Source: Escherichia coli
GTDB lineage: Bacteria > Pseudomonadota > Gammaproteobacteria > Enterobacterales > Enterobacteriaceae
Reading direction: 5' to 3' (one strand)
NCBI RefSeq assembly: GCF_011045215.1
Contig: NZ_CP049201.1
Length of the DNA: 64,000 bases
The position numbers were made by a program, and so were the translations under genes. Numbering within the stretch: the stretch's first letter is position 1; each line of letters starts with the position of its first letter. The notes below the pieces were generated by a model that worked only from the letters and a program-made list of their open reading frames with translations, was not told where the DNA came from and ran no database searches. Of the stretch, positions 1-64,000 are shown piece after piece.

Positions 1-56
1 GCACTGCTGGACACCCAGCCCACATCCTGACGCGCTTCGCTTGTCTGCTGCTTCGC

Positions 57-81
57 CGGGGCATAAAAAATTTATGCCCCG
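57..81. other. Perfect inverted repeat / stem-loop (CGGGGCATAAA-aaa-TTTATGCCCCG)
   Basis: 11-bp arms read directly; no adjacent T-tract, so not a canonical intrinsic terminator. Confidence 0.5.
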
Positions 82-560
82 ACTCTCCAGCTCCTGTATC
101 AATCAGATAATTTCACGACGTCTTCCAGCTTATTGCCATCATCGACGGTCAGGCTCTTACGCAATCCCATCGCGCTGACTGCATGTTCTCGCCGCCTCAG
201 TGCGATTTTGACGGCCTTATCTGCCACCCCATCAAATCAAAAGCCCTCACGTCTTTTTCACGCTCAGCGTGAGAAATACAGCCATTCTGTTGTGTTGCTG
301 CGACATCGTTCAGGGGATGCTATTTATCCCCTGAAACGCGGGCTGTTCCCCCGTCACCTGCGCGCAGAAAAAACGCGTTTTTTTGTGCACGCACGGATCC
401 TTGACGGATCCAGCCGCCACGGGGGCCGGAAGGGCAAAAAGTCGTTCAAAAAAATTGTGCAAATTTGTGCACTATCGTGCAGTGTGCATCGTGCTGTTTT
501 CTGCGCAAAAAACGGATGGTAAATTTGTTCGTAGCAGGGAAATTTTAATGAGCGCAAGAC

Positions 561-1091
561 ATGAAGAAAGATTCATATCCTTATTTGATTTGCATGACTG
601 TTTCAGTGCTAGGGATTATTTTCCTCTTTTACTGGTGGAGGGCAGATATCTACAGGATTACATATCTTAATTCGCGTATATCCAATTATTACATCTTGTG
701 TAGTATGGGTATGTCCTTTTTCTTCTCCTTGTTTCTGGTGAAGAGGGGGGTAGTGAAGCAAAGTGGCTGGAAAGGACTGTCGGAATACCTGAAGGTTTAT
801 GCTGGCTCTTGCATTCTTACAGGGATATTCCTGATTATTCCTCTTATGATGGTGACTTATTTTTTACCAGGAGTAACATCATCATATGTTGCACCGTATG
901 AGTATACATCTGGTAGTTCAAGAAGCTGTTCCGGAGCGTTTGTTGATGATCCCGAACTGCATAAAAATATTCTTATTTGCTATCCGTATGGTAACTATGA
1001 ATATGACAATATTATCTATGTTGAAAAGAAAACTAATGCATTGGGCGTTGTTGTGACGTATGCACAGACTGCACGAGACGATGCTGAATAA
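561..1091 (+). CDS. Hypothetical polytopic membrane protein (about 3 predicted TM helices, soluble C-terminal ~80 aa); AT-rich cargo gene
   Basis: 176-aa ORF with three long hydrophobic segments; strongly AT-rich relative to flanking DNA; no family recognised. Confidence 0.5.
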   Translation: MKKDSYPYLICMTVSVLGIIFLFYWWRADIYRITYLNSRISNYYILCSMGMSFFFSLFLVKRGVVKQSGWKGLSEYLKVYAGSCILTGIFLIIPLMMVTYFLPGVTSSYVAPYEYTSGSSRSCSGAFVDDPELHKNILICYPYGNYEYDNIIYVEKKTNALGVVVTYAQTARDDAE

Positions 1092-1282
1092 GATACTACA
1101 GATATAGTCCACTTTTTTGTTTATTTGTCGGGATAAAAACAAATTACCCCGACTCACCATGTATTAATCTTCCGCTTTAAGTTAGTATTTTAGCTGCGCT
1201 GTCCTGCTATTCAGCAAAGCGGCGTACTTTAATGCGTCCTGTGCTTTCTGGAATTTAAGTGCATAGTCAGTGGCGATTTTTT

Positions 1283-1564
1283 CTAGTTCAGCGATTCGGT
1301 TGTTTTTGGTTTCCAGCCAATCAAGTAGCGCCAATACTTCAGGATCCCGACATCCAACACTGTTACGCGTGATTTTTCATAATGTTCGTCGGCAAGAGTT
1401 CGGCCAATTTTGAAATCTCCATCATCACCATAACCGGAGCAGGCATAAACAACCTGTGCTCCAGATATTCGCTGAATTGACATTTCCTCGCCGCAAATAG
1501 GGCATTTCGGTACTGGCACAGGTGAATAACGTTCACGTAATGCCTGATAGTTGATTTCGCTCAT
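1283..1564 (-). CDS. Small zinc-ribbon protein (CPICG...CSG); probably frameshifted, coding signal continues in another frame to 1185
   Basis: 93-aa ORF with CxxC...C motif; protein-like translation continues in a second frame (DPEVLALLDWLETKNNRIAELEK...) past the stop at 1283. Confidence 0.4.
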   Translation of the reverse strand: MSEINYQALRERYSPVPVPKCPICGEEMSIQRISGAQVVYACSGYGDDGDFKIGRTLADEHYEKSRVTVLDVGILKYWRYLIGWKPKTTESLN

Positions 1565-1627
1565 TAAGTCGTTCTCCTTGTTTATGTTCTGAGGTGGAGA
1601 GCAGGGCGAACTCGCCCTGATGTTGTG

Positions 1628-1939
1628 TTATTCAGGAAATAACGCCCGGATATTTCCGGCCATCTGACTGGTTATCTGTGCGGTTGATACTGGCTGTGAT
1701 GCGGGGCGTTCTGTCCTGGTTTGTGTCACTGATAACGCTTCATCATCAGCCCATGCAGCTAGTCGGTAAGCCTCTGCCGGATTCATTTTCAGAAGTGCCA
1801 GCCCGGCCAGAAAAGCCACACGTTGGCCGCTTTTGCGGGCTTCTGGTGTAAGGCTGTCCAGCCAGGCGCATGCTTCGCCTTCGTTCTTGACGGCGGCGGG
1901 CTTCAGATAGAAACTTATCCGTCTGGTTGGTGTCGTCAT
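1628..1939 (-). CDS. parR: ParR (StbB)-like centromere-binding protein
   Basis: 103 aa from Met at 1939; resembles plasmid R1 ParR (from memory); AAGGAG RBS; starts 4 nt after parM stop. Confidence 0.55.
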   Translation of the reverse strand: MTTPTRRISFYLKPAAVKNEGEACAWLDSLTPEARKSGQRVAFLAGLALLKMNPAEAYRLAAWADDEALSVTQTRTERPASQPVSTAQITSQMAGNIRALFPE

Positions 1940-1943
1940 TGGT

Positions 1944-2903
1944 TTACTCCTTGTCCATTGCGTACAGCCCATTAACCAGAGCAAACTGTGGCACCCCGTC
2001 CGCGATGAAAGTCGCATTAACTCCGCAGGCTTCGCGGATAGCGGGTGCCACAATCTCCGCCCCGCCACCGACAACCATCACCCGCCCGTAACCCGAAAAA
2101 ACCGCCAGCGCGCGGATCACGCGTTGTTTCAGTGTTTCTTCCTTTTCACGAATAACCGCCATCAGGCTGGCGTAATGCGCGTCATTGTGGATGTGTTGGC
2201 GCAACCAGGCTTCATCATGGCGATGTTCGATAATGGTATTGGCGATGTGGTGACTGGTACGCATACCGTTAGCGGCCATCACCGACAGCACGGCACCGGC
2301 CATCAGGGAGACGCCTACGTGTGGATCGCAAAACACCTGGCTGATACCTGCCAGTTGCCCCTGAACCTTTGCCACATCCAGCGTGGTTCCGCCTAAATCC
2401 ACAATCAGCAGGGATTCAAACGGACTCATGTCAGCCAGTGCTTTAAAGCCAGCCGGAATGGATTCAGGCATAACCCGCACGTTACGGATAGTGAATGCTT
2501 CGCCGTTCTGGTACTCCACCGGGCGCATAACGTTCGCTTTTTTGCGGTTGATGTTGGCCATGTCCGGCTGTGCGTTTGTGTCGAAATACTCGCTCAGTGG
2601 CAGGGTGACAACCACATCCACCTCCTGTGGCGTGATGCCTGATTTGACCAGCGTGTGATGAATGGCGATTACATTCACATCGCTGTACTGGTATTGCGTG
2701 TCGGTCGTCTGGACAAAGCGATCGCTGACCGGATCAAAACCATAGCGCACGCCATCAAGCATGTAGTTCGCGGGCTGCATGCCACCGAACGGCGCAGATC
2801 ATTCCGACTTGAAGCTGTTCGGGCTGATGGCGTTGCGGCGTTCGCCATTCTCAGTCCATGCCAGCTTGATGTTGGTGGAGCCGTCGTCGATACAAATTTT
2901 CAT
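1944..2903 (-). pseudogene. parM: ParM (StbA)-like actin-type partition ATPase, interrupted by in-frame TGA at 2799-2801
   Basis: N-terminus MKICIDDGSTNIKLAW...NSFKSE then TGA, then in-frame continuation SAPFGGMQPANYML...; strong similarity to R1 ParM (from memory), where this position is Trp. Confidence 0.75.
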
Positions 2904-2932
2904 GTCGCTTTTCCTTATGTTGATTAATTAAT

Positions 2933-3050
2933 CGTTTACGGGATTCTGAAATCCCGTTTTTGCCTGTTTTGTGTGCGCTTCATATATCGCGGCGCGTTTT
3001 TTGCTCATTTACGGGATTTGTGAATCCCGTTTCTGTCTGTTTTTTGTTTC
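2933..3050. repeat. Two copies (2933-2975, 3006-3050) of a ~45-bp repeat, each with palindrome ACGGGATT-N4-AATCCCGT; candidate parC-like centromere/operator
   Basis: Direct repeat with internal inverted repeat, immediately upstream of the parM start. Confidence 0.6.
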
Positions 3051-4533
3051 CACTGGTCAGGCCACCCCGCAGCAGGTCTGCTTTGCGGCGGGCACGTTCA
3101 GTGGTTTCACTGATTCTCTGTGCGTGCTCTGCGTCGCGGATGGCGCGCAGCATGTCAGAAAGCACGGTAACGGGGGTTTTCATGGTGTTCTGGTCCTGCT
3201 GAAGTGTGGATGCCAGACGTGCGGCGGCTTCGAGGTCTGATGCCCCCAGCTGTTCCAGATAGCTGGCGACCGGGTTATGGCGGATCTCCGTGCTGCTTAC
3301 GCCGTGATTACGGCTCAGGCGCTGCCAGAGCTGCGTGATTCGGCTGTCCGGGCGGGTATCCGGTTTGCGTACAATTTCAAATCCCTGCGGTGCAATGATG
3401 CTGCCGTCAACGTACAGGCTGCCGCCCCGTAACAGGTGCTGCATCTGCTGTTCACCGATATGCATGCCGAGAGATTCGGCAGATTCCCGCCATTCTTTAG
3501 CGAGTAATTCGTGGTTATCAGGCAAAGGCCGCTGCTGTTTGCGGCTCTGTGTCCAGCTCTGCATTTCATCACTGCTGTTTTTTGCCTGTTTGTCACGCAG
3601 CGAACGCATCAGCGCCCGGCGTTCGTGCCGTTTCAGTGAGCGCACCCATTCATCCACATCAACGCCGTCAGGAAGCTGCGGCCACGGTGCTGGCCGTTCT
3701 TCCGGCTGTTCTGTCCCGTTGTTGTCCGTTTCCTGTACACGGGGACAGTTATTGCCACGAGTCCAAGGGGCGGCAGGGCCGCTCTGAAGGTCAAAACCAT
3801 TTTCGCGGGAGCTGTCTTCCGCTTCCGGTTTGCGTCTTACCAGCTTCCAGTTATCCGGATGCGTGCATACGCGGGAAGACTCCCCGATGAGCGGCGACCA
3901 GATCCCGTAAATCTGTACACTCTGCTCACCGTAATCGTTCAGTTCATCTGCGAGGTCGTAGGCGGTGCGAATCAGGTAGTCTTTGCGTGGAACAAGCACG
4001 CCACCCTGTTTTTCAATGTAGGTGGCAAAACACCCGGCATCAGCGGCAGCGAGTACCGCATCCATTGCGTCATCCTTCAGCCGTTGCGGGCCTTCCGGGT
4101 TGCGTGCCATCTGGCTGGCAAGGCGGCGCAGTTCACGCCACACCTGACGGGAGGGGATACCAAAGAACTGGAACTGGCGGACCCGGTGAAGGCGCGCCCA
4201 GCCGATGGCGCGTTCCACGCTCTCGGCCATTGATTTTCCGGTTTCGTGGTCAACGCGTGGCTTGCCCGTTTTCGGGTCGATGCCATCCACGGCGCGGCTG
4301 TCCAGGTTCTTTCCGATGTAGGTGGCGATGTAGCTGGTTGGCGTGCCTTTTGAGCCGTCGACGTACTCCGCCTTAAAACGCGGAGTTATGTCATCGCCCA
4401 GCTCGTGGCGGTCTTCCTGAATGGCAATATCGCAGACGTGGGACACGATGGTTTCAATCTCGTCCGGATGTGCAAAGACCATCATATGCCAGTGCACAGT
4501 GCCGTCATGGTGAGGCTCCAGCGGTGTATTCAC
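2980..4533 (-). pseudogene. HUH-motif rolling-circle replication initiator, P2 gpA-like; apparently 5'-truncated
   Basis: 517-aa ORF begins at GTG right at the motif HHDGTVHWHMMVFAHPDE, preceded by in-frame TGA; upstream 300 bp is coding-like in two other frames. Confidence 0.5.
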
Positions 4534-4686
4534 TCAGCGAGGCACACCCGCCAGCAGTGTGATGCGCCAGCATTGCCGCAAATACGGAGGCCGGGGAGTC
4601 GTAATACGCCAGCAGTGATTCGCCATGCGGTGTCAGGCAGCGCAACGCCAGCCCGTGTGGTGTTAAGTCCACGCGGTAGCAGTCGT

Positions 4687-4836
4687 CTACTGTGAAATAA
4701 AGGGTGAGCGTTGTTCTTTAGCTGCCATTTCATCAATGACGGCTCGCTCTTCGAGGGACAGCCGAAGTGCCAGTCTTGGACCTGTGGCGGTGTTACGCGG
4801 AATGCGTGATCTGGTATCGTGAAGAACTTGTTTCAT
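4687..4836 (-). CDS. Small 49-aa ORF divergent from the XRE gene (possible Cox/excisionase-like or RHH regulator)
   Basis: ATG at 4836 to TAG at 4687; below the 60-aa ORF-track cutoff; position equivalent to cox in a P2-type early region. Confidence 0.3.
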   Translation of the reverse strand: MKQVLHDTRSRIPRNTATGPRLALRLSLEERAVIDEMAAKEQRSPFISQ

Positions 4837-4878
4837 AGTGGTATATTGTGATCATCTAATAGCTCATGAAATCATTTT

Positions 4879-4896
4879 GGTATCAAAAAAGATACC
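4879..4896. promoter_or_regulatory. Palindrome GGTATC-N6-GATACC in the divergent promoter region; candidate operator
   Basis: 6-bp perfect inverted arms with A6 spacer between divergent starts at 4836 and 4912. Confidence 0.35.
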
Positions 4897-4911
4897 TGTC
4901 AAGGTTTTTGT

Positions 4912-5316
4912 ATGAAAAATGATATTGGTCAGCGGTTGCGTGAGGAAAGGGAAAGATTGGGGCTTAGTCAAGTTGCTATGAGCGACATTGGTGGAGTCAA
5001 AAAGCTAACTCAGCTTAGATATGAGAAAGGAGATAGCTTTCCTGATGCTGCGTATTTGGCAGCGCTGTCTCGTTTTGGCCTTGATGTTCAGTATGTTGTG
5101 TTGGGAATTCACTCACCTGAAACTTATAACGATGATGAGCAGGAGTTGATTACTCGCTTTCGAGCAGCTTCGTTAGATGTAAAAAACGCGGTGATCGGGG
5201 CTTTAAAAGGTGCGGGCAGTGAAAAGGAAACTCAGCCATCAGGGCGTGAGTTAAATATTTCTGGTGGTAATAACCGTATCGCTGGTCGTGACTATAACGA
5301 AACTAAGGGTAGGTGA
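4912..5316 (+). CDS. XRE-family helix-turn-helix protein (repressor-like) with C-terminal tail carrying an NNRIAGRDYNE motif
   Basis: N-terminal HTH signature (IGQRLREERERLGLSQVAMSDIGGVKKLTQLRYEKG); low GC. Confidence 0.7.
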   Translation: MKNDIGQRLREERERLGLSQVAMSDIGGVKKLTQLRYEKGDSFPDAAYLAALSRFGLDVQYVVLGIHSPETYNDDEQELITRFRAASLDVKNAVIGALKGAGSEKETQPSGRELNISGGNNRIAGRDYNETKGR

Positions 5317-5331
5317 TAGTAGGGAGGTGAC

Positions 5332-5982
5332 ATGGCCGTCAACTCAAACGGTTCAAACAATCGCGTTGCTGGGCGTGATTTTCACGAAAAGAATATTCAG
5401 ATAGAGCGATATGATGGTTCTCATACCGTCAATATCGCAATCCCTTCGAATAATGATGATGACGCTCGCCCTTTGCTTAAGGCACAGCGTAAGGAGCTAA
5501 ATAGCTTGGTTGCTGCTATTGCAGAAGCTAGCAATACTGAAGCGTTTATTATTTGGCAAAAAGTACATGCGGAGATTGGTGTAGCTGGTATTGATGATAT
5601 GACAATAAATCAATATAAAACAGCGGAGAGTTTTCTGCATGCAATGCTTGAGCGATGTAAAGATCATGATGCCTGTAAGACTCTTGTAAGTTTATTACTA
5701 CGTAACAGTGAAGACTGTGGACTTCGACAAAAACTTCTGCGGTATTGCCATATCAATTTCGGTACAGGACGTTTAAACGATCTTACTCGTTCTCAGTTAC
5801 AGTCTGCATTGTCGTGGTTAGAGCAACAATCGGTATCAAGCCACTCAGAGAATTCGACCTTACCAGAAGTTCGCCTTCGTGCTTCAGAATTAATCCGATT
5901 TTATCCAAAAGAAATAATATTCTTTATCTGCGTAGGGGTTTTGGTAGGCGGAGCCATTTCTAGGATGTTTTTTAATTTGTAA
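5332..5982 (+). CDS. Hypothetical protein, cytoplasmic domain plus single C-terminal transmembrane anchor; N-terminus repeats the NNRVAGRDFHE motif
   Basis: 216 aa; strong RBS AGGGAGGTGA 5 nt upstream; C-terminal hydrophobic segment IIFFICVGVLVGGAI; low GC. Confidence 0.6.
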   Translation: MAVNSNGSNNRVAGRDFHEKNIQIERYDGSHTVNIAIPSNNDDDARPLLKAQRKELNSLVAAIAEASNTEAFIIWQKVHAEIGVAGIDDMTINQYKTAESFLHAMLERCKDHDACKTLVSLLLRNSEDCGLRQKLLRYCHINFGTGRLNDLTRSQLQSALSWLEQQSVSSHSENSTLPEVRLRASELIRFYPKEIIFFICVGVLVGGAISRMFFNL

Positions 5983-6011
5983 TCTTACTTGAGCTAAATT
6001 GAGGCAATGAC

Positions 6012-6359
6012 ATGAAAGTAAAAAAGGTTCAACTATTAGTTGCTTTTTTATCTATGTTTTCTTTTTCCGCCGTCGCAATGCCTTTTAAAACTATTGAACG
6101 TGAGAGTTTCAATGGAGTATGGCCATTTAATACAGATGAGGTTCAATTGCAGTGTCTTGATGGTAATCCTTATGTGATGAATTTTGACGATAATAAGTTA
6201 TATGCGCTTACAGGTTTGGCTCGAATAAAAGGTAAAACATTTGGTGCGTTACCGTTAGATAACAATAATCCATTTTGGCTAGATAATGATGCCGCCCCAG
6301 GGTTAAAAAAGAATCTGGGGGACGTCACTAAGGCTGCATTTGATTTATGTGATAAGTAA
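6012..6359 (+). CDS. Small secreted/periplasmic protein with signal peptide (tentatively DUF2511/YebY-like)
   Basis: 115 aa; N-terminal signal peptide MKVKKVQLLVAFLSMFSFSAVA; family assignment from memory only. Confidence 0.55.
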   Translation: MKVKKVQLLVAFLSMFSFSAVAMPFKTIERESFNGVWPFNTDEVQLQCLDGNPYVMNFDDNKLYALTGLARIKGKTFGALPLDNNNPFWLDNDAAPGLKKNLGDVTKAAFDLCDK

Positions 6360-6364
6360 CAAAA

Positions 6365-7366
6365 ATGTCGGTTCGTAAAACTCCATCAGGTAAATGGCTT
6401 TGCGAATGTTATCCCTACGGAGCATCGGGAAAACGCATTCGTAAACAGTTTGCGACAAAAAGTGAGGCGCTCTCTTATGAGCGCCGTTTAATGAATAGTA
6501 GAGTTGGAGACGAGTTTCAAGATGGTTCTGGTCCTCGTCTTTCTGAGTTGATTGCTCGTTGGTTTGAGATGTACGGAAAAACCTTGTCCTCTGGTGCAGA
6601 GCGCAAAGTCAAACTTGAGGCGATTTGTTCTAGGCTGGGAGATCCATTTGCTTCTCAGTTTGACAAAAATATGTTTGCTACTTATCGGGAAAGAAGGCTA
6701 TCAGGAGAATGGAATCCCAAGGGGAAGAAAAAACTTAGTGAAGCAACCGTTAATCGCGAGCAGTCATATCTACATGCTGTTTTTGCCGAACTGAAGCGCC
6801 TTGGGGAGTGGTCTGGTGAAAACCCCCTGACTGGAATTCGCAAGTTTCGTGAGGAAGAAAAGGAGCTGGCGTTTCTGTATGTAGATGAGATTGAACGCCT
6901 TTTGATTGCGTGTGATGATTCACGGAATAAAGATTTGGGGGTTGTTGTCCGTATTGGGCTTGCGACTGGTGCTCGGTGGAGTGAAGCAGAAGGATTAAAG
7001 CAATCTCAAGTACTGCCCGGTCGAATCACATTTGTTAAAACTAAAGGAAAGAAGAACCGCACTGTACCGATTTCACCTCAATTGCAGGCTATGCTTCCTA
7101 AAAAACGAGGAGCGCTATTTTCACCATGTTATGAGGCTTTTGACGCTGCAATTAAGAGAGCGAAGATAGAGCTCCCTGATGGGCAATTAACTCATGTGCT
7201 ACGTCACACGTTTGCTAGTCATTTTATGATGCGGGGCGGAAATATTCTTGTGTTGCAAAAAATACTGGGGCATAGCGATATAAAAATGACTATGCGTTAT
7301 GCGCATTTTGCTCCGGGTCATTTAGAGGCTGCTGTTGAATTAAACCCTTTTGACAATAGAGGGTAA
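6365..7366 (+). CDS. int: Tyrosine recombinase, P2-type phage integrase
   Basis: 333 aa; motifs LATGARWSEA, ITFVKTKGKKNRTVPIS, HVLRHTFASHFMMRGGNILVLQKILGH, MRYAHF closely match P2 Int (from memory). Confidence 0.9.
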   Translation: MSVRKTPSGKWLCECYPYGASGKRIRKQFATKSEALSYERRLMNSRVGDEFQDGSGPRLSELIARWFEMYGKTLSSGAERKVKLEAICSRLGDPFASQFDKNMFATYRERRLSGEWNPKGKKKLSEATVNREQSYLHAVFAELKRLGEWSGENPLTGIRKFREEEKELAFLYVDEIERLLIACDDSRNKDLGVVVRIGLATGARWSEAEGLKQSQVLPGRITFVKTKGKKNRTVPISPQLQAMLPKKRGALFSPCYEAFDAAIKRAKIELPDGQLTHVLRHTFASHFMMRGGNILVLQKILGHSDIKMTMRYAHFAPGHLEAAVELNPFDNRG

Positions 7367-7472
7367 AAAGTGGCGATAAAAAGTGACAATAGATTCAAAT
7401 GGCGTCGTATAGAGCTATTTGCAAAGTTAATAAAATCATAAGGTTATGATTTATAAATGGTGGTTGATAGTT

Positions 7473-7527
7473 TTTAAAATCCCTCGGCGTTCGCGCTGTG
7501 CGGGTTCAAGTCCCGCTCCGGGTACCA
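7473..7527 (+). other. leuZ: 3' ~55 nt of tRNA-Leu (leuZ) ending in CCA: attachment-site core; not an intact tRNA
   Basis: TTTAAAATCCCTCGGCGTTCGCGCTGTGCGGGTTCAAGTCCCGCTCCGGGTACCA matches the leuZ 3' part; upstream sequence only partly tRNA-like, no acceptor-stem 5' strand. Confidence 0.8.
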
Positions 7528-15802: not shown

Positions 15803-19155
<3,353 letters not shown>

Positions 19156-19161
19156 GAGCGG

Positions 19162-19590
19162 TTAATCTCCCGTAAGTGGAACTAACAGCACATCGACCTC
19201 ACTTGAGGCAATAACTCTTTTCGCCGAGCAGGATGCTCGCGAAAAGAAACTGTGATTGTGATTACCGCAAATCACCAAATCGAAATGATGTTTGTGACAT
19301 ACTTCCAGAATATGTTCGCTTAACTCACCGTAGGCAATAAACGTCTTGTCAACGGGATACCCCGCATCCTGAATTAACTTATCAAGAAAGCTTTGCGTTT
19401 CTTCCTGCATCACGCTGCGTAAATCTTCAAGCATCGGCGCAGCTAATTGATTGTACATTTCCGGGTCGGAAGCGAGAGTAATTAAACTGATGTGTCCCTT
19501 TACTGGCCTGGCGATAGATACCGCTTTTGCCAGCAGTTGCTGACTTTCCGGTGTAACCGCAACAGCGACAAGAATATTGCTATAGCTCAT
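19162..19590 (-). CDS. uspC: Universal stress protein C
   Basis: 142 aa. Confidence 0.9.
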   Translation of the reverse strand: MSYSNILVAVAVTPESQQLLAKAVSIARPVKGHISLITLASDPEMYNQLAAPMLEDLRSVMQEETQSFLDKLIQDAGYPVDKTFIAYGELSEHILEVCHKHHFDLVICGNHNHSFFSRASCSAKRVIASSEVDVLLVPLTGD

Positions 19591-20369
19591 AACCTGTTCC
19601 TTATTCTGTGAACTTCAGGTGACATTAAAGCTTTACTCCTAATGGAGAAACGACGCAATCCCAACTCGGTCAAACAGGTAAATATTAGTCTGATTATTAG
19701 TAAAGACAATTAATCAATCACTCCCGGTGATCATATAATTTCAAATGTAATTATAAGAAAATAGTGTACTGATTCTCCGCATTAAACAAGTGGTTAATAT
19801 ATGTAAAACATTTCATTAACATTAAGTTGATTGTTGCCTTTCTTTGTATTTAATTAGTTTGTTGTGCGGTAAGTGTCTGTTTAAAAATAGCTTATCTGGT
19901 ATTGCATGAAAGTGATTATTTATAGCAGATGATTATTTACGGTGAGTTATTTTAACTGTGCGCAACATCCCATTTCGATTATTCCTGTTTCATTTTTGCT
20001 TGCTAGCGTAGCGAAAAACTTTTTAACAGATTGAAATACACCCAAAACAAAAGTATGACTTATACATTTATGTTAAGTAATTGAGTGTTTTGTGTGATCT
20101 GCATCACACATTATTGAAAATCGCAGCCCCCCTCCGTTGTATGTGCGTGTAGTGACGAGTACAGTTGCGTCGATTTAGGAAAAATCTTAGATAAGTGTAA
20201 AGACCCATTTCTATTTGTAAGGACATATTAAACCAAAAAGGTGGTTCTGCTTATTGCAGATTATCGCAACTATTCTAATGCTAATTATTTTTTACCGGGG
20301 CTTCCCGGCGACATCACGGGGTGCGGTGAAACCGCATAAAAATAAAGTTGGTTATTCTGGGTGGGAATA
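19591..20369. promoter_or_regulatory. flhDC upstream regulatory region (AT-rich, ~780 bp)
   Basis: Long AT-rich intergenic region upstream of flhD; no transposase ORF present. Confidence 0.6.
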
Positions 20370-20720
20370 ATGCATACCTCCGAGTTGCTGAAACACATTT
20401 ATGACATCAACTTGTCATATTTACTACTTGCACAGCGTTTGATTGTTCAGGACAAAGCGTCCGCTATGTTTCGTCTCGGCATAAATGAAGAAATGGCGAC
20501 AACGTTAGCGGCACTGACTCTTCCGCAAATGGTTAAGCTGGCAGAAACCAATCAACTGGTTTGTCACTTCCGTTTTGACAGCCACCAGACGATTACTCAG
20601 TTGACGCAAGATTCCCGCGTTGACGATCTCCAGCAAATTCATACCGGCATCATGCTCTCAACACGCTTGCTGAATGATGTTAATCAGCCTGAAGAAGCGC
20701 TGCGCAAGAAAAGGGCCTGA
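20370..20720 (+). CDS. flhD: Flagellar master regulator FlhD
   Basis: 116 aa from MHTSELL (alternative start 20361). Confidence 0.95.
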
Positions 20721-20722
20721 TC

Positions 20723-21301
20723 ATGAGTGAAAAAAGCATTGTTCAGGAAGCACGGGATATTCAGCTGGCAATGGAATTGATCACCCTGGGCGCTCGTTTG
20801 CAGATGCTGGAAAGCGAAACACAGTTAAGTCGCGGACGCCTGATAAAACTTTATAAAGAACTGCGCGGAAGCCCACCGCCGAAAGGCATGCTGCCATTCT
20901 CAACCGACTGGTTTATGACCTGGGAACAAAACGTTCATGCTTCGATGTTCTGTAATGTATGGCAGTTTTTACTGAAAACCGGTTTGTGTAATGGCGTCGA
21001 TGCGGTGATCAAAGCCTACCGTTTATACCTTGAACAGTGCCCACAAGCAGAAGAAGGACCACTGCTGGCATTAACCCGTGCCTGGACATTGGTGCGGTTT
21101 GTTGAAAGTGGATTACTGCAACTTTCCAGCTGCAACTGCTGCGGCGGCAATTTTATTACCCACGCTCACCAGCCTGTTGGCAGCTTTGCCTGCAGCTTAT
21201 GCCAACCGCCATCCCGGGCAGTAAAAAGACGTAAACTTTCCCAGAATCCTGCCGATATTATCCCACAACTGCTGGATGAACAGAGAGTACAGGCTGTTTA
21301 A
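20723..21301 (+). CDS. flhC: Flagellar master regulator FlhC
   Basis: 192 aa; zinc site CNCCGG...CSLC. Confidence 0.95.
21232..21258 (+). promoter_or_regulatory. Sigma-28 (FliA) promoter for motAB-cheAW, inside the 3' end of flhC
   Basis: TAAACTTT-N11-GCCGATAT, two mismatches to TAAAGTTT-N11-GCCGATAA. Confidence 0.5.
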
Positions 21302-21326
21302 CTGATACGGTGAGGCGCAACATTCC

Positions 21327-21359
21327 AGCAGCGGTAACGACGTACCGCTGCTTTTTTTT
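21327..21359 (+). terminator. Intrinsic terminator after flhC
   Basis: CAGCAGCGG...CCGCTGC stem followed by T8. Confidence 0.75.
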
Positions 21360-25731: not shown

Positions 25732-25759
25732 TTCTCCCGATTTCCTCAATTGAAATAAA

Positions 25760-25787
25760 CCCGATGATCTGCGCATCGGGTTTTTTA
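25760..25787 (+). terminator. Intrinsic terminator after cheW
   Basis: CCCGATG...CATCGGG stem then T6. Confidence 0.75.
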
Positions 25788-25817
25788 TTTCAATTTCGCG
25801 GCGGGTGGCATCAGCAA

Positions 25818-25844
25818 TAAAGTTTCCCCCCTTCTTGCCGATAA
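25818..25844 (+). promoter_or_regulatory. Sigma-28 (FliA) class III promoter of the tar-tap-cheRBYZ operon
   Basis: TAAAGTTT-N11-GCCGATAA exact consensus match. Confidence 0.8.
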
Positions 25845-39293: not shown

Positions 39294-40049
<756 letters not shown>

Positions 40050-40095
40050 TTTTTACCGTTGCATCATGTCGCCCAATATGATGCTTGCTCGTACC

Positions 40096-40128
40096 AGGCC
40101 CCTGCAATTTCAACAGGGGCCTTTTTTT
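40096..40128 (+). terminator. Intrinsic terminator after cutC
   Basis: AGGCCCCTG...CAGGGGCCT stem then T7. Confidence 0.8.
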
Positions 40129-44040: not shown

Positions 44041-44142
44041 CTGCCTGATGCGCTATGCTTATCAGGCCTACATAGTCCCTGCAATATATTGAATTAGCAA
44101 GGTTTTGTAGGCCGGATAAGGCGTTCACGCCGCATCCGGCAG
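44041..44142. repeat. REP/BIME palindromic elements
   Basis: GCCTGATGCGCTA...TAGGCCGGATAAGGCGTTCACGCCGCATCCGGCA. Confidence 0.75.
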
Positions 44143-59349: not shown

Positions 59350-59377
59350 AAAAGCCTCTCGCGAGGAGAGGCCTTCG
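59350..59377. terminator. Bidirectional intrinsic terminator between lpxM and pykA
   Basis: A-run, GCCTCTC-GCGA-GGAGAGGC stem, flanked by T/A tracts. Confidence 0.75.
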
Positions 59378-59437
59378 CCTGATGATAAGTTCAAGTTTGC
59401 TTCAGAATATTCGAAATCTGTTGAACTATCATTGAAC

Positions 59438-59475
59438 TGTAGGCCGGATGTGGCGTTTTCGCCGCATCCGGCAAC
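59438..59475. repeat. REP element
   Basis: TAGGCCGGATGTGGCGTTTTCGCCGCATCCGGCA. Confidence 0.75.
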
Positions 59476-59479
59476 GTAC

Positions 59480-60922
59480 TTACTCTACCGTTAAAATACG
59501 CGTGGTATTAGTAGAACCCACGGTACTCATCACGTCGCCCTGGGTGACAATCACCAGGTCACCAGACATCAAGTAACCTTTATCGCGCAGCAGATTAACC
59601 GCTTCGCTGGCAGCTGCTACGCCGTCATTAGCGCTATCAAAGTGCACCGGCGTAACGCCACGATAGAGAGCAGTCAGGTTCAGCGTACGTTCATGGCGCG
59701 ACATGGCGAAAATTGGTAGACCAGAGCTGATACGGGAGGTCATCAGCGCGGTACGACCCGATTCGGTCATGGTAATGATCGCCGTAACGCCTTTCAGGTG
59801 GTTAGCTGCGTACATTGCTGACATGGCAATAGCTTCTTCCACATTGTCGAACTGAACGTCCAGACGGTGTTTAGAAACGTTGATGCTCGGGATTTTTTCC
59901 GCACCCAGGCAAACGCGCGCCATGGCTGCAACAGTTTCTGACGGATACTGCCCAGCGGCAGTTTCTGCAGACAGCATCACAGCGTCAGTACCATCCAGAA
60001 CGGCGTTTGCTACGTCCATGACTTCTGCACGCGTCGGCATCGGGTTAGTAATCATTGACTCCATCATCTGGGTCGCCGTGATTACCGCGCGGTTAAGCTG
60101 ACGCGCACGACGGATCAACGCTTTCTGAATGCCGACCAGTTCCGGGTCGCCAATTTCCACACCGAGGTCGCCACGTGCAACCATTACCACGTCAGAGGCG
60201 AGGATGATGTCATCCATTGCATCCTGGCTGCAAACGGCTTCCGCACGTTCAACCTTGGCAACAATTTTCGCATCACATCCTGCATCGCGTGCCAGGCGAC
60301 GGGCATAGTTCAGATCTTCGCCACAGCGTGGGAAGGAGACAGCCAGGTAATCTACGCCAATCAACGCCGCAGTCTTAATGTCTGCTTTGTCTTTTTCGGT
60401 CAGCGCTTCAGCCGACAAACCGCCGCCAAGTTTGTTGATACCTTTATTGTTGGAGAGGGGACCACCGACGGTGACTTCGGTGAACACTTTCATGCCCTGA
60501 ACTTCCAGTACTTTTAACTGGACGCGACCATCGTCCAGCAGCAGGATGTCACCAGGCACGACGTCAGCAGGCAGGCCTTTGTAGTCGATACCGACTTTTT
60601 CTTTGTCGCCTTCACCTTTACCCAGGTTGGCGTCGAGCAGGAATTTATCCCCAATGTTGAGGAAAACTTTGCCTTCTTTAAAGGTGGATACACGGATTTT
60701 GGGCCCCTGGAGGTCACCCAGAATAGCCACATGACGCCCCAGTTTTGCGGCAATCTCACGAACTTTATCCGCGCGCATTTTGTGATCTTCAGGCGAGCCG
60801 TGAGAAAAGTTCATACGTACAACGTTGGCACCCGCCGCGATAACTTTTTCAAGATTATTATCGCGATCTGTTGCTGGGCCTAACGTGGTAACGATTTTTG
60901 TTCTGCGAAGCCTTCTGGACAT
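59480..60922 (-). CDS. pykA: Pyruvate kinase II
   Basis: 480 aa from [19 protein letters not shown]. Confidence 0.97.
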
Positions 60923-61049
60923 GTAATACTCCGTTGACTGAAACAACCAGGTGTTGCTTGAACATGAAATCCGAATGAAATAACGCCGCGATGGCGATAA
61001 ATTAATCTCATTCGGATGTCGTATAAGATTAGAACAGTGACAGTCGCTT

Positions 61050-61919
61050 TTAGCGATCGTCACTTAAATTAAGTAACTGCTTATCAAAACGCGATTCCTT
61101 CAGCGCTTCCTTGACCCGCTTCAAGTTATCTCTGAATTTTGCACCGCGTCGCAAAGTAAATCCTGTCGCCAGCACATCTATCACGGTCAGCTGTGCAAGT
61201 CGAGAAACCATGGGCATATAAATGTCAGTATCTTCCGGTACGTCGAGGGTAATTGCCAGCGTTGCTTCCCGGGCGAGCGGGGTACCCGCAGAGGTGAGGG
61301 CAATCACCATGGCGTCGTTTTCGCGTGCCAGCTGCGCCAGCTCGACCAGATTTTTTGTTCTTCCAGTGTGAGAAATCAGCACCACCACGTCTCCGTCGCT
61401 ACAATTCATACAACTCATGCGTTGCAGCACGATATCATCGGAGTACACCACCGGAACATTAAAACGAAAGAACTTATTCATCGCATCGTGGGCAACGGCG
61501 GCTGAAGAGCCTAATCCGAAAAAGGCGATTTTTTTTGCCTGAGTGAGCAAGTCGACGGCGCGGTTGATGGCAGATTTATCCAGTGAATGACGGACATGAT
61601 CGAGCGTTGCCATTGCAGACTCAAATATTTTCCCTGTGTATGATTCAACGCTGTCATCTTCATTGACGTTGCGATTAACATAGGGAGTGCCATTCGCCAG
61701 ACTCTGTGCCAGATGAAGTTTAAAATCAGGAAAACCGCGCGTGTCCATGCTGCGACAGAAACGATTCACCGTCGGTTCGCTAACATTGGCTTCCAGCGCC
61801 AGAGCAGCAATACTCGAATGGATCGCGTTATCGGGCGAAGCCAGAATGACCTCGGCAACTTTGCGCTCTGATTTGCTCAAATGTTCCAGCTGAGACTGGA
61901 TTTTTTCCAGCATATTCAT
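61050..61919 (-). CDS. hexR: RpiR-family regulator HexR
   Basis: 289 aa; HTH + SIS domain. Confidence 0.95.
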
Positions 61920-62256
61920 GATGTAAAGAGACTCACGGGTAATGACGATTTCCGCACTGAAAGAAATCGAAATGCAGTTTTGTCAGATATTACGCCTGTG
62001 TGCTGTGTTAATGACAAAAGCAGATAAAAAAGTTGTTATTTTTTTTCATAACATGATCAGTGTCAGATTTTTACCCAATGGAAAACGATGATTTTTTTAT
62101 CAGTTTTGCCGCACTTTGCGCGCTTTTACCGTAATCGCACGGGTGGATAAGCGTTTACAGTTTTCGCAAGCTCGTAAAAGCAGTACAGTGCACCGTAAGA
62201 AAATTACAAGTATACCCTGGCTTAAGTACCGGGTTAGTTAACTTAAGGAGAATGAC

Positions 62257-63732
62257 ATGGCGGTAACGCAAACAGCCCAGGCCTGTGACCTGGTCATTTT
62301 CGGCGCGAAAGGCGACCTTGCGCGTCGTAAATTGCTGCCTTCCCTGTATCAACTGGAAAAAGCCGGTCAGCTCAACCCGGACACCCGGATTATCGGCGTA
62401 GGGCGTGCTGACTGGGATAAAGCGGCATATACCAAAGTTGTCCGCGAGGCGCTCGAAACTTTCATGAAAGAAACCATTGATGAAGGTTTATGGGACACCC
62501 TGAGTGCACGTCTGGATTTTTGTAATCTCGATGTCAATGACACTGCTGCATTCAACCGTCTCGGCGCGATGCTGGATCAAAAAAATCGTATCACCATTAA
62601 CTACTTTGCCATGCCGCCCAGCACTTTTGGCGCAATTTGCAAAGGGCTTGGCGAGGCAAAACTGAATGCTAAACCGGCACGCGTAGTCATGGAGAAACCG
62701 CTGGGGACGTCGCTGGCGACCTCGCAGGAAATCAATGATCAGGTTGGCGAATACTTCGAAGAGTGCCAGGTTTACCGTATCGACCACTATCTTGGTAAAG
62801 AAACGGTGCTGAACCTGTTGGCGCTGCGTTTTGCTAACTCCCTGTTTGTGAATAACTGGGACAATCGCACCATTGATCATGTTGAGATTACCGTGGCAGA
62901 AGAAGTGGGGATCGAAGGGCGCTGGGGCTATTTTGATAAAGCCGGTCAGATGCGCGACATGATCCAGAACCACCTGCTGCAAATTCTTTGCATGATTGCG
63001 ATGTCTCCGCCGTCTGACCTGAGCGCAGACAGCATCCGCGATGAAAAAGTGAAAGTACTGAAGTCTCTGCGCCGCATCGACCGCTCCAACGTACGCGAAA
63101 AAACCGTACGCGGGCAATATACTGCGGGCTTCGCCCAGGGCAAAAAAGTGCCGGGATATCTGGAAGAAGAGGGCGCGAACAAGAGCAGCAATACAGAAAC
63201 CTTCGTGGCGATCCGCGTCGACATTGATAACTGGCGCTGGGCCGGTGTGCCATTCTACCTGCGTACTGGTAAACGTCTGCCGACCAAATGTTCTGAAGTC
63301 GTGGTCTATTTCAAAACACCTGAACTGAATCTGTTTAAAGAGTCGTGGCAGGATCTGCCGCAGAATAAACTGACTATCCGTCTGCAACCTGATGAAGGCG
63401 TAGATATCCAGGTACTGAATAAAGTTCCTGGCCTTGACCACAAACATAACCTGCAAATCACCAAGCTGGATCTGAGCTATTCAGAAACCTTTAATCAGAC
63501 GCATCTGGCGGATGCCTATGAACGTTTGCTGCTGGAAACCATGCGTGGTATTCAGGCACTGTTTGTACGTCGCGACGAAGTGGAAGAAGCCTGGAAATGG
63601 GTAGACTCCATTACTGAGGCGTGGGCGATGGACAATGATGCGCCGAAACCGTATCAGGCCGGAACCTGGGGACCCGTTGCCTCGGTGGCGATGATTACCC
63701 GTGATGGTCGTTCCTGGAATGAGTTTGAGTAA
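62257..63732 (+). CDS. zwf: Glucose-6-phosphate 1-dehydrogenase
   Basis: 491 aa. Confidence 0.97.
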
Positions 63733-63810
63733 TATCTGCGCTTATCCTTTATGGTTATTTTACCGGTAACATGATCTTGCACAGATTGTAGAACAATTTT
63801 TACACTTTCA

Positions 63811-63846
63811 GGCCTCGTGCGGATTCACCCACGAGGCTTTTTTTAT
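63811..63846 (+). terminator. Intrinsic terminator after zwf
   Basis: GCCTCGTG...CACGAGGC stem then T8. Confidence 0.75.
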
Positions 63847-63966
63847 TACACTGACTGAAACGTTTTTGCCCTATGAGCTCCGGTTACAGGCGTTTCACTC
63901 ATAAATCCTCTGAATGAAACGCGTTGTGAATCATCCTGCTCTGACAACTCAATTTCAGGAGCCTTT

Positions 63967-64000
63967 ATGAATCCACAATTGTTACGCGTAACAAATCGAA
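63967..64000 (+). CDS. edd: Phosphogluconate dehydratase, first 11 codons only (continues beyond window)
   Basis: ATG AAT CCA CAA TTG TTA CGC GTA ACA AAT CGA = MNPQLLRVTNR. Confidence 0.8.
   Translation, partial: MNPQLLRVTNR

Follow-up and report, generated by a model that had tools for sequence, protein, structure and literature searches.

In stocks of Escherichia coli K-12, insertion of an insertion sequence (IS) at about −96 to −476 from the flhD transcription start boosts flhDC expression (PMC5100188). IS5 at the TTAA at −99 to −96 has been reported in the MG1655 Fnr−, BW25113 and MC1000 lineages (PMC5100188). An earlier sequence-only reading of the DNA analysed here started from the premise that motility of laboratory E. 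coli often depends on an IS upstream of flhD and, for K-12 stocks, this agrees with the published accounts (PMC5100188, PMC5493358, PMC5289928). In K-12, the region is bound by H-NS, LrhA, OmpR, Fur, IHF and MatA, and by RcsAB and YjjQ too (PMC5493358). A CAP site at −72 has been stated for the flhD promoter (bioRxiv 10.1101/2021.05.11.443715), and the flhD leader is targeted by CsrA, McaS, ArcZ, OmrA/B and OxyS (PMC3634460).

The window, which is the whole 64-kb stretch of DNA analysed, carries otsB–otsA (otsA at 17722–19155, plus strand) upstream of uspC, the gene for universal stress protein C (142 aa; 19162–19590, minus strand). uspC was identified from its ORF and from uspC annotations at the corresponding location of the genomes aligned. 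The gene is transcribed divergently from flhD, and its product is identical to the UspC protein of strain E2865. The minus-strand start codon of uspC reaches to 19590 and flhD begins with its ATG at 20370; positions 19591–20369 are therefore the entire intergenic regulatory region, and the ORF bounds and alignment show it to be complete and uninterrupted at 779 bp. The G+C content of this interval is 34.7 % and, in 200-nt windows across it, 28.5–33 %, versus approximately 50 % in the flanking genes. The sequence-only reading had called it an AT-rich region of ~780 bp, and both the description and the bounds given were correct.

Downstream of the interval, both flhD and flhC are intact, as in the native class of this locus. 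FlhD (116 aa; 20370–20720, plus strand) is identical to that of MG1655, whereas FlhC (192 aa; 20723–21301, plus strand) differs from the common allele by A79V. Both identifications are based on the ORFs and on comparison. The substitution corresponds to window position 20958, in codon 79 of flhC, and the common allele is found in MG1655, E2865 and XPFI_3_2, being recorded as WP_001291603.1 in the two PGAP records (E2865 and XPFI_3_2). By homology to MG1655 b4828, the sRNA MotR, which covers the 3′ end of flhC and extends into the leader of motA, is at 21265–21359 on the plus strand. There are no differences from MG1655 within 21265–21359, the nearest being at 21202, just upstream. The function of MotR is described in PMC10578931. 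The ORF of motA follows flhC from 21428, and motAB, cheAW, tar, tap, cheRBYZ and flhBAE are all represented by full-length ORFs.

The interval aligns without gaps or breaks over 779 of 779 positions to many E. coli genomes that lack an IS here, and the alignment contains one mismatch. At least 80 % of it was found in one place in 5,271 of 5,426 complete genomes, a count that includes K-12-type genomes because the alignment tool joined across their IS1. When 60 genomes evenly spaced down the ranking of the 5,421 matching genomes were sampled, 56 had the interval as a single piece spanning 777–780 bp; the remaining four comprised two K-12-type genomes with IS1 and two shortened by IS-linked deletions. 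Of the 11 metagenome contigs with the common allele of the leader, 10 have the interval at a span of 778–780 bp, and the eleventh is truncated at the end of the contig. On a larger scale, window positions 7473–59360 are collinear with strain XPFI_3_2, and no transposase is annotated in that span. The best match of the strain over 24 kb is only 99.4 %. Judged from its sequence, the strain is not K-12, and it represents a lineage not found in the genome collection. The K-12 rule that absence of an IS means poor motility is therefore not transferable to it. Most natural E. coli have an flhDC promoter without an IS.

Collinearity with XPFI_3_2 breaks just before yecA, and positions 1–7472 of the window are not collinear with that strain. 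This part encodes a ParM-like protein (1944–2780), a protein in which the P2 gpA replication domain is partial (2980–4533) and a phage integrase (6365–7366); it resembles one end of a P2-like prophage or island. A tRNA gene was not found anywhere in the 64-kb window. At the other end, 59361–64000 contains pykA, a gene for an RpiR/HexR-type regulator and zwf, which we take to be the K-12 gene order. XPFI_3_2 differs from the window there, having an alpha-mannosidase/arabinofuranosidase island beside lpxM. Rfam matches above the gathering score elsewhere in the window were the sRNA MicL (39821–40128, plus strand, 373.7 bits), C0465 RNA between cheW and tar (25751–25828, minus strand) and ES036 (44064–44106, minus strand).

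The promoter elements could be placed by sequence and by reference to the mapped start of MG1655. The annotated end of the MG1655 asflhD feature, 1978395, is the flhD transcription start and converts to window position 20172, which would give this strain a 5′ leader of 198 nt (20172–20369, plus strand). This length, with a further 22 nt, matches the 220-nt sense fragment described between the promoters of flhD and AsflhD, the latter being 22 nt into the flhD ORF. The sequence around the mapped MG1655 start is identical in this strain, and the leader is the same as that of MG1655 except at 20260. A putative −10 hexamer, TACAGT (20160–20165, plus strand; −12 to −7), was assigned from its position relative to the mapped start; it is identical across the E. 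coli genomes compared and is TAGAGT in Salmonella. The putative −35 hexamer of this class I flagellar promoter, TTGTAT (20137–20142, plus strand), was likewise assigned by position, 17 bp before the −10 hexamer, and is identical in MG1655, LF82, MNCRE44 and Salmonella. A predicted CRP-cAMP site, the perfect palindrome TGTGATCTGCATCACA, is at 20093–20108 on the plus strand and is conserved in Salmonella. Relative to the start at 20172 its centre is at −71.5, which is where the native class has its CRP site (near −71.5/−72). The 61-mer from 20078 to 20138, which covers the CRP site up to the −35 hexamer, is found exactly in 2,863 genomes and is the commonest E. coli allele. The distal CRP half-site (20104–20108) is the consensus TCACA in this strain, LF82, MNCRE44 and Salmonella, and TCACG in the MG1655 reference. 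The K-12-like strain BHUCD02 has TCACA, although the same IS1 is present. A scan of the interval for the sigma-70 consensus did not find the actual flhD promoter, the hexamers of which are weak. Its sole match was at 19949–19978 on the minus strand (TCGAAA, 18 bp, TAAAAT), directed toward uspC, and was given no weight as evidence for a uspC promoter, since 4.5 matches were expected by chance.

Within the leader, the predicted fold includes a stem that sequesters the Shine-Dalgarno sequence. The antisense RNA AsflhD is at 20172–20391 on the minus strand by homology to MG1655 b4839 (NC_000913.3, 1978176–1978395), and its sequence is that of MG1655 except at 20260. If these elements act as they do in K-12, an extension by analogy from the K-12 studies that applies equally to any motility phenotype, transcription from 20172 would be driven by a weak sigma-70 promoter (TTGTAT, 17 bp, TACAGT) and would depend on CRP-cAMP bound at the consensus site centred at −71.5. 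Approximately 480 bp of AT-rich DNA further upstream, to which H-NS and the repressors bind in K-12, would form the main silencing part, and the IS1 and IS5 insertions that relieve repression in laboratory strains fall in this DNA. The 198-nt leader would add a layer of post-transcriptional control by CsrA, McaS, ArcZ, OmrA/B, OxyS and AsflhD. As no IS is present, flhDC should stay under native environment-dependent control and not be constitutively raised.

The positions of IS insertions known from laboratory strains were transferred to the window by the conversion: window position = 20370 + (1978197 − x), x being the coordinate in MG1655. Mapped in this way, the IS5 target TTAA (−99 to −96) and the CRP site (−71.5) coincide with their published positions. 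The zone of motility-activating IS1 and IS5 insertions in K-12 (−476 to −96 from the transcription start; positions from PMC5100188 mapped via the MG1655 annotation) corresponds to 19696–20076 and is empty here. The MG1655 IS1H (1978503–1979270) falls between 20064 and 20065. The octamer CATTTATG, which is duplicated beside IS1H in MG1655 (−107 to −100; flanks of IS1H in NC_000913.3), is at 20065–20072 and present as a single copy, and BHUCD02 has 776 extra bp at this insertion point. The IS5 hot spot TTAA (−99 to −96; PMC5100188) is at 20073–20076 and unoccupied. Two further published IS5 targets, CTAG at −166 (20003–20006) and TTAG at −315 (19854–19857), were recognized in the sequence using the positions in PMC5100188 and the tetranucleotides in PMC5493358 and are also unoccupied. 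Duplications of the target of the kind expected of IS1 (8–9 bp) or IS5 (4 bp, YTAR) were not found, CATTTATG, TTAA, CTAG and TTAG each occurring once, and between uspC and the flhD transcription start, where the IS lies in the IS-activated class, this strain has none.

The opposite state was seen in two other genomes. E. coli E05 retains the interval's first 221 bp, followed by IS1, and has lost everything beyond as far as a point within tar. The EV36 mutant 5a has IS5 at the TTAA hot spot and a deletion extending to a TTAA within flhC; its IS5 (GGAAGGTGCG...) starts immediately after the TTAA that corresponds to 20073–20076.

The presence of an IS in the interval was examined by seven independent tests. 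The sequence-only reading had held that no IS lies upstream of flhD and that the region contains neither a transposase-like ORF nor terminal inverted repeats, and all three statements were borne out, the first by the gap-free collinearity with IS-free genomes and the empty IS1 and IS5 sites. It had also proposed alignment to K-12 MG1655 and other strains as a check, and this revealed no IS remnant and no IS inverted repeats in the interval. The seven ORFs of 30–40 aa that it contains, none being longer than 40 aa, matched no Pfam family above noise. Neither IS1 terminal repeat was found anywhere in the 64-kb window with up to 3 mismatches allowed, nor was any IS5 sequence, and the complete IS1H of MG1655 and IS5 of strain EV36 5a gave only chance matches to the interval, of up to 11 nt. 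No Rfam family was found within the interval. A blastn search (11-nt words) of the interval against 72,556 plasmid records rich in IS copies gave no IS match; the 13 records that were matched all contain the same chromosomal region or its Salmonella counterpart. One plasmid record, HM037272.1 from Bacillus thuringiensis CT-43, has at 68388–68877 a 490-bp segment with 99.4 % identity to window positions 19591–20080. This match terminates at the IS1/IS5 hot spot, and the segment is probably E. coli K-12 host DNA taken into the plasmid record.

That the interval hides a decayed IS, a single terminal repeat of one or a miniature inverted-repeat element is, on the searches made, next to impossible. 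AT-rich DNA holds numerous short imperfect repeats, and 23 inverted pairs were indeed returned by the repeat search, the best of which is a perfect 12-nt pair that has one arm within uspC. However, perfect repeats lying inside the interval do not exceed 10 nt, and this is typical of resampled sequence: in 500 first-order Markov resamplings of the interval, 10 nt was reached by the longest inverted repeat in 416 and by the longest direct repeat in 238. The absence of IS1 ends, of IS1H or IS5 matches longer than 11 nt and of any plasmid-borne IS match also argues against such an element, as do the constant length of the interval across thousands of genomes and the alignment of the promoter-proximal 280 bp with Salmonella at 72 %. 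That an IS was once present and has since been lost, so that the interval is a revertant and not ancestral, is exceedingly improbable. IS-mediated rearrangements are known at this locus, in the IS1-linked deletion of E05 and the IS5-linked deletion of EV36 5a. However, there is no footprint, the octamer and the three IS5 tetranucleotides being single-copy, and the most common IS-free alleles differ from the interval by one base. An entirely exact excision would leave no trace, yet nothing requires one. We therefore regard the interval as almost certainly the ancestral, uninterrupted uspC/flhDC divergent control region, free of any IS.

The one mismatch is a private base, A at 20260 on the plus strand, which is +89 in the leader and −110 relative to the ATG; all other sequences examined have C. 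In the 5,426 complete genomes, a 61-nt query with this position at its centre had no full-length exact match, and an exact 39-mer search of metagenome contigs found the A version in none and the C version in 11. The base lies inside both the leader and the AsflhD duplex, none of the three reference alleles compared has FlhC A79V, and either change could alter flhDC output. A region that is IS-free but in which flhDC output has been retuned by 20260 C>A and/or A79V is, however, very unlikely. In a crude duplex calculation that used 24-nt sliding windows, ignored intramolecular structure and gave coordinates that are 1 too low, A at 20260 reduced the predicted pairing of a weak ArcZ site and a weak McaS site, at approximately +69 to +92, by 2.6 and 1.2 kcal/mol, respectively. 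The strongest predicted sRNA sites are elsewhere and are unaffected. The predicted effect on folding is only one extra U–A pair in a small hairpin (approximately 1.3 kcal/mol), and the predicted accessibility of the Shine-Dalgarno sequence stays at 0.12. Neighbouring segments also diverge from their nearest alleles at similar densities. Differences estimated from BLAST bit scores were 2 in 1,869 nt for otsA–uspC, 3 in 1,937 for motAB, 3 in 932 for the flhDC coding sequence and 1 in 779 for the intergenic region. An enrichment of private changes in flhDC was considered and rejected, the otsA–uspC and motAB segments having similar densities. Since the strain is on a lineage outside the collection, private bases at such a density are expected and, on the sequence comparisons, 20260 A and A79V fit the lineage background (1–3 differences per kb) or sequencing error. 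The narrower proposal, that C>A at +89, alone or with A79V, is an adaptive mutation acting via AsflhD, ArcZ or McaS pairing or via leader structure, is highly improbable. If true, it would be an IS-independent route to altered motility in a natural isolate.

The preferred reading, an ancestral and uninterrupted control region, agrees with the native regulatory configuration suggested by the sequence-only reading, in that uspC and flhD are divergent around 779 bp collinear with IS-free strains, the length and order are those of the large majority of natural E. coli, and the IS sites are empty and unduplicated. The architecture, the empty IS targets, the sequence identity of the elements and the intact state of flhD, flhC and the genes downstream are direct observations. 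Native is used here for architecture only, as the leader has the private base at 20260. Moreover, IS-free K-12 is poorly motile and wild isolates vary, and a native architecture does not predict phenotype. The strain would keep fully regulated flhDC control, unlike IS-activated laboratory K-12 stocks. This is useful for annotation and for the planning of motility experiments, as motility of the strain may be conditional and selection on soft agar could yield fast swimmers that carry an IS. For such work, the positions given above for the promoter elements and the empty IS hot spots can be reused.

Among the described systems, Salmonella enterica also has uspC and flhD arranged divergently, and its stretch from the CRP site through the leader to the ATG aligns at approximately 72 %, but the upstream 500 bp could not be aligned by blastn and the leader contains indels. 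The IS5-activated K-12 derivatives (MG1655 Fnr−, BW25113 swimmers, MC1000 and RP437, with IS5 at −99 to −96, −166 or −315) have the same target tetranucleotides at the same positions. All three targets are empty in this strain. MG1655 (NC_000913.3) has flanks with 4 differences in 779 bp and the same transcription start (predicted for this strain), leader, AsflhD and MotR, but also carries the 768-bp IS1H with the 8-bp CATTTATG duplication at −107 to −100, both of which are absent here. The closest resemblance is to IS-free natural E. coli, for example SE11, O26, O103 and O111 strains and E2865. These have C at 20260 and FlhC A79, where this strain has A and V79, but share the 779-bp length, the order, 778 of 779 bases, the CRP site, the −35 and −10 hexamers, the predicted transcription start, the leader and the FlhD protein.
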